From Escherichia coli (lineage in GTDB: Bacteria; Pseudomonadota; Gammaproteobacteria; Enterobacterales; Enterobacteriaceae): a stretch of 64,000 bases of DNA. The notes under the pieces are model-generated. The model searched no databases. It was not told the origin of the DNA and saw only the letters and a program-made list of their open reading frames with translations. This document shows, piece after piece, positions 51,281-53,123 of the stretch (position 1 is the first letter of the stretch; the number at the start of each line of letters is the position of its first letter). The translations under genes and the position numbers were made by a program. The DNA is taken from NCBI RefSeq assembly GCF_045037415.1, contig NZ_CP173438.1. One strand, 5' to 3'.

Positions 51281-52192
51281 ATGCTGTGGTTCAAAAATTT
51301 AATGGTTTACCGTCTTAGCCGCGAGATTTCGCTGCGTGCAGAAGAGATGGAAAAACAGCTAGCCTCGATGGCATTTACCCCATGCGGCAGCCAGGACATG
51401 GCGAAGATGGGCTGGGTACCTCCGATGGGATCGCACAGCGATGCGTTAACGCACGTTGCCAATGGTCAAATTGTTATCTGTGCGCGCAAAGAAGAAAAAA
51501 TCCTCCCGTCCCCGGTGATTAAACAGGCGCTGGAAGCGAAAATCGCCAAACTGGAAGCGGAACAGGTGCGTAAGCTGAAGAAAACCGAAAAAGATTCGCT
51601 GAAAGACGAAGTGCTGCACTCTCTGCTGCCGCGTGCTTTCAGCCGTTTTAGCCAGACAATGATGTGGATCGATACGGTTAACGGTTTGATTATGGTGGAC
51701 TGCGCCAGCGCCAAAAAAGCGGAAGATACGCTGGCACTGCTGCGTAAAAGCCTGGGGTCGTTACCGGTTGTACCATTGAGCATGGAAAACCCGATTGAAC
51801 TGACGCTGACCGAATGGGTACGTTCCGGCAGCGCGGCACAGGGCTTCCAGCTGCTTGATGAAGCCGAGCTGAAATCGTTGCTGGAAGATGGCGGCGTGAT
51901 CCGCGCGAAGAAACAAGATCTGACCAGCGAAGAGATCACCAACCACATTGAAGCCGGAAAAGTGGTGACTAAACTGGCGCTCGACTGGCAGCAGCGCATT
52001 CAGTTTGTGATGTGCGACGATGGTTCGCTCAAGCGTCTGAAGTTCTGCGACGAGCTGCGCGATCAAAACGAAGATATCGACCGTGAAGATTTCGCCCAGC
52101 GCTTTGATGCCGATTTCATCCTGATGACTGGTGAACTGGCAGCGTTAATTCAAAACCTGATTGAAGGATTAGGTGGCGAAGCACAACGTTAA
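51281..52192 (+). CDS. rdgC: Recombination-associated protein RdgC
   Basis: ORF 51209..52192 trimmed to Met25 (303 aa) [27 protein letters not shown]. Confidence 0.9.
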
Positions 52193-52208
52193 TTGCTGAT
52201 TTACCTTT

Positions 52209-52247
52209 AATGCCGGATGCGACGCCTGCCGCGTCTTATCCGGCGTA
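52209..52247. repeat. REP element downstream of rdgC
   Basis: AATGCCGGATGCGACGCCTGCCGCGTCTTATCCGGCGTAC palindromic REP-like unit. Confidence 0.7.
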
Positions 52248-52349
52248 CGAAGCCACACCAGGAATATAATCGTTAGCTACAGCGGGCAATAATTCTTAGC
52301 GCAGCAATATTATGCGTTTTATGCTGTAACTTGCTCCAGGGGCGTTGTG

Positions 52350-52631
52350 TCATTGTTTTTCCTCAAGCCGGTGACGCGCTTCACTGCGAATTTTTCGCGT
52401 TGCCCCGGTTTTCACTAAATCACGTAACAGCGAAAGATCGGGTTGTTCGACAAATAAGAGTAATGATGGATCCTCTTTTAACCACGCCGTTTTCACATCG
52501 GCAGCCAGCTGTGAATTATTAATAGCCAGCGACCGCTCCTGAGGCTCAGTCAATGTCGTTAACAACAACACCGGGGTATGTGCGTTGTGCAATGCCGTTT
52601 GGCGCAAATGATCATTGCGACTTTGCAGCAA
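52350..52631 (-). CDS. Hypothetical small protein (possibly the ykiA locus); start and true extent uncertain
   Basis: 93-codon ORF (..LLLFVEQPDLSLLRDLVKTGATRKIRSEARHRLEEKQ) in the rdgC-ppnP gap where K-12 carries ykiA as I recall; begins at a non-ATG (TTG) codon and has no internal Met. Confidence 0.4.
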   Translation of the reverse strand: MLQSRNDHLRQTALHNAHTPVLLLTTLTEPQERSLAINNSQLAADVKTAWLKEDPSLLLFVEQPDLSLLRDLVKTGATRKIRSEARHRLEEKQ

Positions 52632-52794
52632 TGCACGCCACCATTCATCATCTGATTTATCTTTTATCGTCGCCAGTTCCGCAACAATATCTGGAGATCT
52701 TCGCTGATATTGATATCAACCTTGATGAATTATGAATATATCGGAAATCGAAAAAATCCCAGCAAAGGAAATATTATTATGGGTTAAAGAGAGG

Positions 52795-52835
52795 ACATTT
52801 CAGAAAAATGCCCTCCCGTTCAAGGGGAAGGCGAG
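52795..52835 (-). terminator. Terminator-like hairpin downstream of ppnP
   Basis: GCCUUCCCC..GGGAGGGC stem followed by AUUUUU on the minus transcript, just past the ppnP stop. Confidence 0.5.
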
Positions 52836-52838
52836 GAA

Positions 52839-53123
52839 TTACAGATAGCGGCACAGATAAGAGGTGGGTTCGGCAACTTGCAGATGAAACTCGCTGTGAC
52901 CGGGAACATTAAACACCGAACCGGCTTCATACACTTGCCAGTCGGTCGCGTCAGGCAGTAACACATTCAGCGCGCCACTGATTACCGTCATCTCTTCAGG
53001 CTCAGCGGTGCTGAAGGTGTATTCACCTTCAACCATAACACCCACGCTGGCGCGACCAGTGCTGCTGCTGGAAAAGCCGATCGATTTCACTTTGCCGGAA
53101 AAGTACTCATTACTTTGAAGCAT
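52839..53123 (-). CDS. ppnP: Pyrimidine/purine nucleoside phosphorylase PpnP
   Basis: 94 aa [30 protein letters not shown]; recognised PpnP (yaiE). Confidence 0.9.

Follow-up and report, generated by a model that had tools for sequence, protein, structure and literature searches.

The methionine-free ykiA frame between rdgC and ppnP of Escherichia coli is very probably the decayed 3' end of a 759-codon gene, with no recoding at its TGA

The gap between rdgC (plus strand, ending at 52192) and ppnP (52839..53123, minus strand) in a 64,000-nucleotide stretch of the Escherichia coli chromosome (contig NZ_CP173438.1, assembly GCF_045037415.1; hereafter the window) contains a 93-codon open reading frame (ORF) on the minus strand, at 52350..52631. 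This ORF belongs to the ykiA locus and is very probably the dead 3' end of a 759-codon gene, lying within a decayed two-gene unit and involving no recoding. A first-pass annotation of the window had described the ORF as starting at a TTG, spanning 93 codons, lacking any internal methionine and ending at a TGA (52352..52350), after which the same frame continues for 17 sense codons (HNAPGASYSIKRIILLR) to a TAA at 52298..52296, all of which was confirmed on re-reading the sequence. Its statement that this is the only protein-like frame in the gap has to be corrected, as the annotated ykiD gene (52273..52353, minus strand) is also present, in a different frame and with its ATG overlapping the TGA. 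Truncation or pseudogenisation of a longer gene, a mis-called start and recoding by readthrough had been offered as explanations. The first of these is borne out by homology: E. coli O157:H7 and Escherichia sp. E4930 carry an intact 759-codon gene, of which the ORF represents the last ~113 codons.

The pseudogene ykiA (b0392) occupies 52350..52691 on the minus strand and is made up of ancestral codons 359-362 and 651-759 of the 759-codon DUF2773 gene, followed by its native TGA. The Prokaryotic Genome Annotation Pipeline (PGAP) likewise treats this interval as a pseudogene, an incomplete 'DUF2773 domain-containing protein' with a missing N-terminus, and the RefSeq record of K-12 MG1655 lists a pseudogene ykiA (b0392) at 408609..408950 next to ykiD (b4732) at 408947..409030. 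The Pfam model PF10971 (DUF2773) matches residues 41-121 of the open frame over its entire length (model positions 1-81 of 81) with an E-value of 2.1e-43 and 146.8 bits, compared to a score cut-off of 25 bits, and the frame therefore contains a significant, full-length DUF2773 domain. Upstream, the frame is open as far as 52715, giving 121 codons, but it contains no ATG, GTG or TTG between that point and the TTG of the ORF, and no ATG or GTG anywhere. The idea of a mis-called start is thus correct insofar as the TTG, the first in the open frame, is an artefact of mechanical ORF calling and not a demonstrated start; the true start codon, however, has been deleted rather than overlooked.

The ancestral organisation is preserved in O157:H7, where the ppnP-rdgC gap carries two intact genes, encoding a 759-amino acid DUF2773 protein (WP_120795310.1) and a 149-amino acid protein of the SF0329 family. 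The 759-amino acid protein has a signal-like hydrophobic segment at its N-terminus, and DUF2773 comprises only its last 81 residues (679-759). A structure model of mediocre quality (predicted local distance difference test (pLDDT) 70, predicted template modelling score (pTM) 0.42) suggests with moderate confidence a beta-rich domain (residues ~68-177) followed by a HEAT/ARM-like alpha-solenoid (residues ~240-759), and comparison of this model with known structures returned only generic HEAT/ARM solenoids with low template modelling (TM) scores. For the ancestral proteins, a sequence-profile search of the PDB yielded no match, Pfam and NCBIfam scans yielded nothing beyond DUF2773 and SF0329, and a literature search on DUF2773 and SF0329 found nothing relevant. 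An intact 759-amino acid DUF2773 gene with 73% identity occupies the same locus in Escherichia sp. E4930 (GCA_004745115.1), and a second DUF2773 homologue, 49% identical, is found at another locus without an SF0329 neighbor. Of WP_120795310.1, the window frame retains residues 357-362 and 651-759, with 95% nucleotide identity over codons 647-759, and it shares with the O157 gene the stop codon and the 5' intergenic region. It lacks the start codon, the signal peptide, the N-terminal beta-rich domain and most of the ~500-residue solenoid (codons 1-356 and 363-650).

A BLAST comparison with O157 resolves the window into four blocks on the minus strand. Block 1 (52892..52697) covers the ppnP end and the intergenic region, reaching to 2 nucleotides short of the intact ATG. 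Block 2 (52697..52680) is TCTCCAGATATTGTTGCG, equivalent to codons 357-362, and matches O157 (locus L006, 3745..3728) at 18 of 18 nucleotides. Block 3 (52691..52323) runs from codon 647 to the stop and on through the first 10 SF0329 codons, with 95% nucleotide identity to L006 2875..2507, whereas block 4 (52331..52140) contains the last SF0329 codons, a repetitive extragenic palindromic (REP) element and the rdgC end. The composite junction at 52680..52697 consists of GAAGAT, the end of the 5' untranslated region (5'UTR), joined to TCTCCAGATATTGTTGCG and then to GAACTG at codon 651 and onward. Three deletions are therefore inferred between the ancestral two-gene unit and the window. The first would have removed the long gene from its start codon through codon 356, and the second codons 363-650, in frame and within the imperfect repeat GATATT(G/T)TTGCG. 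The third would have removed SF0329 codons 11-134 (372 nucleotides), also in frame, between two copies of AGTTAC(A/G)GC. Both copies of this 9-nucleotide direct repeat are present in O157 and in E. coli MS 145-7 but only one in all ykiD alleles; the single remaining copy in the window, AGTTACAGC, lies at 52323..52331 on the minus strand.

The seven E. coli remnant alleles examined all share this 5' junction, as does the SF0329-only allele of MS 145-7; this suggests that a single first deletion occurred in a common ancestor and that the alleles then decayed along separate lines. MS 145-7 (L003:1581-2037) represents a third allele class, in which the ykiA coding part, from GAACTG to the SF0329 ATG, is deleted precisely, while its SF0329 gene is kept, with an additional C after codon 5 that shifts the reading frame. 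A fourth class is represented by proteins P0045-P0047, P0050 and P0051, derived from metagenome and assembly data, in which ...RHRLEEKQ is fused in frame to KTHNIAALKIIARRSE and the TGA and the ykiD start are gone. Insertion sequences also occur at this locus, namely IS1A in the gap of strain PEC408 (NZ_CM168008.1) and an IS3-family element in the long-gene region of strain VE-T9 (NZ_AP027963.1).

The window carries the common form of the locus. Its 651-bp gap is 100% identical to that of ST131-type E. coli chromosomes, and it has the junction that defines the shared pseudogene allele, GAAGAT, CTCCAGATATTGTTGCG and GAACTG, between ppnP and rdgC. Of 5426 complete E. coli genomes, 5424 contain gap sequence, 4500 (about 83%) have the ykiA-ykiD remnant form and 444 the full two-gene module, the rest being mostly SF0329-only forms.

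The TGA is, judging from the alignment, the native terminator of the 759-codon gene, because all full-length homologues stop at one alignment column, with EEKQ, EELK or EG-D directly before the stop. The homologues aligned were the O157 protein, those of two other E. coli clusters, the Escherichia sp. E4930 protein (73%) and the 49%-identical protein encoded at another locus. The O157 protein itself ends in ...RHRLEEKQ, after which the TGA overlaps the SF0329 start as ATGA. The same GAGGAAAAACAATGA context joins ykiA to ykiD in the window, where the ATGA overlap (52350..52353, minus strand) consists of the ykiA TGA (52352..52350) and the ykiD ATG (52353..52351). The first-pass annotation had envisaged that reference strains might share the stop along with a conserved 93-codon product. 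The position of the stop is indeed the same, but the product is a gene remnant, and there is no conserved 93-codon protein.

Programmed recoding at the TGA, by readthrough or selenocysteine insertion, would add 17 residues to ykiA, and the open stretch itself is the only observation in its favor. The 17 sense codons and TAA (52296..52349, minus strand) are ykiD sequence read in an alternative frame, and nothing indicates that they are translated. Against recoding stands, besides the native terminus in all intact homologues, the variability of the extension, whose sequence differs between E. coli strains (HNAPGASYSIKRIILLR versus HNVHGASYSVKRIILLR) and whose length is 17 codons in all seven remnant alleles, but 15 in O157 and 11 in E4930, where the downstream gene differs. 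A run of at least 17 sense codons is expected with a chance of (61/64)^17 = 0.44, and among the 77 long open frames of the window, 47% stay open for 17 or more sense codons past their stop; the open stretch is what chance gives. No stable or selenocysteine insertion sequence (SECIS)-like structure was found 3' of the TGA (z = 0.43 for RNA folding compared to shuffled sequence), and an Rfam scan around the TGA returned no family, only a sub-threshold REP-like match near rdgC. Neither a conserved extension nor a downstream stimulatory RNA structure thus marks this stop as a recoding site, and the upstream frame has no start codon in any case. The readthrough explanation is rejected, effectively refuted, with a probability close to nil. 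The plus strand carries, at 52369-52395, a hairpin and T-run resembling a terminator (CGGTGACGCGCTTCACTG CGAATTTTTC), antisense to the ykiA 3' end and about 180 nucleotides past rdgC; the resemblance to the consensus may be due to chance.

Several observations weigh against a wholly dead ykiA frame and a simple history of its decay. The second junction occurs in two variants, and therefore the number and order of deletion events are not fully fixed. Furthermore, none of the seven E. coli remnant alleles inspected interrupts the frame, the DUF2773 domain within it is complete, the ratio of nonsynonymous to synonymous substitution rates (dN/dS) among remnants is mostly below 1, and a weak Shine-Dalgarno-like GGTGG lies 6 nucleotides 5' of the TTG. 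On these grounds, low-level translation of a 93-amino acid fragment is possible as far as the sequence goes. The corresponding alternative is that ykiA encodes a functional short protein, a C-terminal DUF2773 helical-repeat fragment that is translated starting at the TTG (52631) or a non-canonical upstream codon and kept by selection. The occurrence of the remnant form in 4500 genomes and the activity of the promoter in K-12 (PMC3950696) would also agree with this. However, the frame has neither ATG nor GTG, and the fragment comprises only about three hairpins from the end of a solenoid of ~500 residues and lacks the signal peptide. Pairwise dN/dS between E. coli ykiA remnants ranges from 0.34 to 1.24, with about 0.5 typical and most values at 0.3-0.7, compared to 0-0.1 for the adjacent ppnP and 0.18 over the same 113 codons between the intact O157 and E4930 genes. 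This fits relaxed constraint on ykiA, although only 2-17 substitutions were counted per pair, which leaves residual function formally possible; part of the sub-1 ratio may stem from the time as an intact gene. Since the most distant alleles are separated by only ~17-24 substitutions, a 113-codon frame would fairly often be expected to remain unbroken by chance. Further-decayed protein clusters are found in public assemblies, including ykiA-ykiD fusions, a 3-nucleotide indel and the EEKQ-KTHNIAALKIIARRSE fusion produced by a different deletion. One large cluster, P0012 with 571 member sequences, is frameshifted within the A-run that precedes the stop, and the MS 145-7 lineage has deleted ykiA entirely. 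Taken together, a selected short protein appears very unlikely.

The second gene of the unit has decayed in a similar way. The ykiD allele of the window (52273..52353, minus strand) encodes 26 amino acids (MTQRPWSKLQHKTHNIAALRIIARCS) and is an internally deleted SF0329-family gene, retaining codons 1-10 and the last ~16; PGAP calls it as a hypothetical protein (WP_122083095.1), named 'protein YkiD' in K-12-like strains. Intact SF0329-family genes encode 149-151 amino acids, and an alignment across several phyla shows two conserved regions, WSKLQ (residues 6-10) and RKTHNxAAxK near the C-terminus. YkiD is exactly these conserved N- and C-terminal ends joined. The 26-residue protein has no match in Pfam or NCBIfam, the family models (PF25753 and NF049912) extending over ~150 residues of which the termini alone align, and, judging from a structure model, it cannot adopt the family fold. 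As far as can be read from the alignment, YkiD is derived from an SF0329-family gene but is not itself a family member. The ORF that begins at the ATGA after ykiA has the YkiD form MTQRPWSKLQ.KTHNIAAL.IIAR.., although synthesis has been demonstrated for the K-12 allele only, the 27-amino acid K-12 YkiD having been detected by chromosomal SPA tagging (VanOrsdel et al.; PMC6001520).

In Escherichia sp. E4930 (L008:7277-7345), a 21-codon ykiD-like ORF (MRLRRKTHNIAALKIIIRRSE) follows the intact 759-amino acid gene, again with an ATGA overlap, and the SF0329 gene has therefore been reduced to a stump in this lineage too. This stump arose either by a separate in-frame deletion or by the K-12-type deletion and the loss of 18 more nucleotides. 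The C-terminal helix KTHNIAALKIIARRSE thus occurs in a translated frame in three apparently different deletion alleles: the 27-amino acid K-12 form, the 21-amino acid MRLRRKTHNIAALKIIIRRSE and the ...EEKQ-KTHNIAALKIIARRSE fusion. Together with the synthesis of YkiD in K-12, this could, if true, reflect selection for the peptide, for example as a remnant binding helix; that YkiD is a micro-protein exapted from the two conserved SF0329 termini, rather than mere debris, seems nevertheless distinctly improbable.

How ykiD would be translated bears on the state of ykiA. Under termination-reinitiation at the ATGA, the ykiA frame would have to be translated to deliver ribosomes, and both the conservation of the overlap from the intact two-gene unit and the production of YkiD-SPA in K-12 agree with such coupling. 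A good GAGG Shine-Dalgarno sequence (52361..52364, minus strand), read from the sequence, is however located 7 nucleotides upstream of the ykiD/SF0329 ATG and should permit independent initiation. Moreover, ykiA has no recognisable start codon, and in the SF0329-only allele the ATG persists although nothing is left of the upstream ORF. Reinitiation is accordingly considered unlikely. Instead, ykiD would be translated from its own Shine-Dalgarno sequence because the SF0329 initiation signals have been kept.

The SF0329 family is unusually conserved between phyla, its homologues in Proteobacteria, Bacteroidota, Firmicutes and others showing 55-68% identity. At L010:387-9036, L011:726-10364, L009:2238-5471 and L012:4070-6252, all from other phyla, its genes lie in long same-strand small-gene arrays beside a tyrosine integrase. 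Their array neighbors include Imm10, SUKH-3, Macro and WGR/DUF4240, so that the arrays look like acquired immunity-gene islands, which would suggest that the family may be related to polymorphic-toxin immunity. A toxin-immunity pair formed by the 759-amino acid protein and SF0329 was considered in view of the ATGA overlap and these contexts, but is weakened by E4930, which keeps the long gene with only a 21-codon SF0329 remnant, and by the 49%-identical DUF2773 homologue without an SF0329 neighbor; a PADLOC scan for defence systems gave no hits. The 3' end of the O157:H7 SF0329 gene (L006:2088-2140) contains an extra A in an A-run, with KNYCPP replacing the family-typical KIIARRSE, and therefore even this 'intact' copy has a C-terminal frameshift.

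Upstream of the remnant, the ancestral region is retained at 52698..52838 (minus strand), with 95% identity to O157 L006 4956..4815, which lies directly 5' of the intact ATG. A consensus scan places the ppnP terminator hairpin at 52832..52810 and promoter-like hexamers at 52803..52776, both on the minus strand. In K-12, BglJ-RcsB activates a promoter located ahead of ykiA, for which a transcription start was mapped by rapid amplification of cDNA ends (5'-RACE) (Salscheider et al.; PMC3950696). This BglJ-RcsB-activated 'ykiA promoter' is the orphaned promoter and 5'UTR of the lost 759-amino acid gene, which explains its existence. On the other side of the locus, a REP-type palindrome between ykiD and rdgC (52198..52245; GCCGGATAAGACGCGGCAGGCGTCGCATCCGGC) gives a partial, sub-threshold match to the Rfam family naRNA4 on both strands.

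A pathway can thus be proposed in which the ancestral state, a 759-amino acid gene whose TGA overlaps the SF0329 ATG, has been kept in O157:H7-like strains, while the three deletions took place in the lineage of the window, K-12 and about 83% of complete E. coli genomes. What is left comprises the old promoter and 5'UTR, a start-less ykiA frame of 113-121 codons with its native TGA, and a ykiD of 26-27 codons preceded by the old Shine-Dalgarno sequence and still beginning at the old ATG. The orphaned promoter would transcribe this stump, from which the ykiA frame, lacking a start, would not be productively translated. The promoter activity and the detection of YkiD-SPA in K-12 are taken from the literature, whereas homology, junctions, annotation and allele frequencies are demonstrated here. 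For the recoding question itself little is at stake, since the pseudogene is already known and no special meaning attaches to the TTG 'start' or to the 17 codons past the TGA. The comparison does trace, step by step, the decay of a two-gene unit in most E. coli. It also implies that YkiD, a 'validated' small protein of K-12, is the in-frame internal-deletion stump of a 150-amino acid gene whose ribosome-binding site has been kept, a caution for small-protein catalogues that detected translation does not equal demonstrated function. The stepwise decay and the origin of YkiD from an SF0329 gene were not found stated in the available literature; they add modestly to what is known and do not amount to a new type of system.

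With programmed readthrough and bacterial selenocysteine insertion, the ykiA TGA shares only a TGA followed by an open frame; unlike such sites, it has neither a SECIS-like hairpin nor a conserved extension, and the stop coincides with the native terminus of its family. Compared to the SF0329 family (PF25753, NF049912), YkiD retains the first 10 and the last ~16-17 codons, including WSKLQ and KTHNxAAxK, whereas 124 internal codons are gone. The closest correspondence is to ykiA and ykiD of K-12, with the same locus, the same junctions and the same TGA/ATGA layout. The ykiA part has 98% nucleotide identity to that of K-12 and the frame differs by four amino acids, while the 26-amino acid YkiD of the window differs from the 27-amino acid K-12 protein by R11H, K20R, R25C and a stop in place of E27. 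The feature is a member of the known, already annotated ykiA/ykiD locus.
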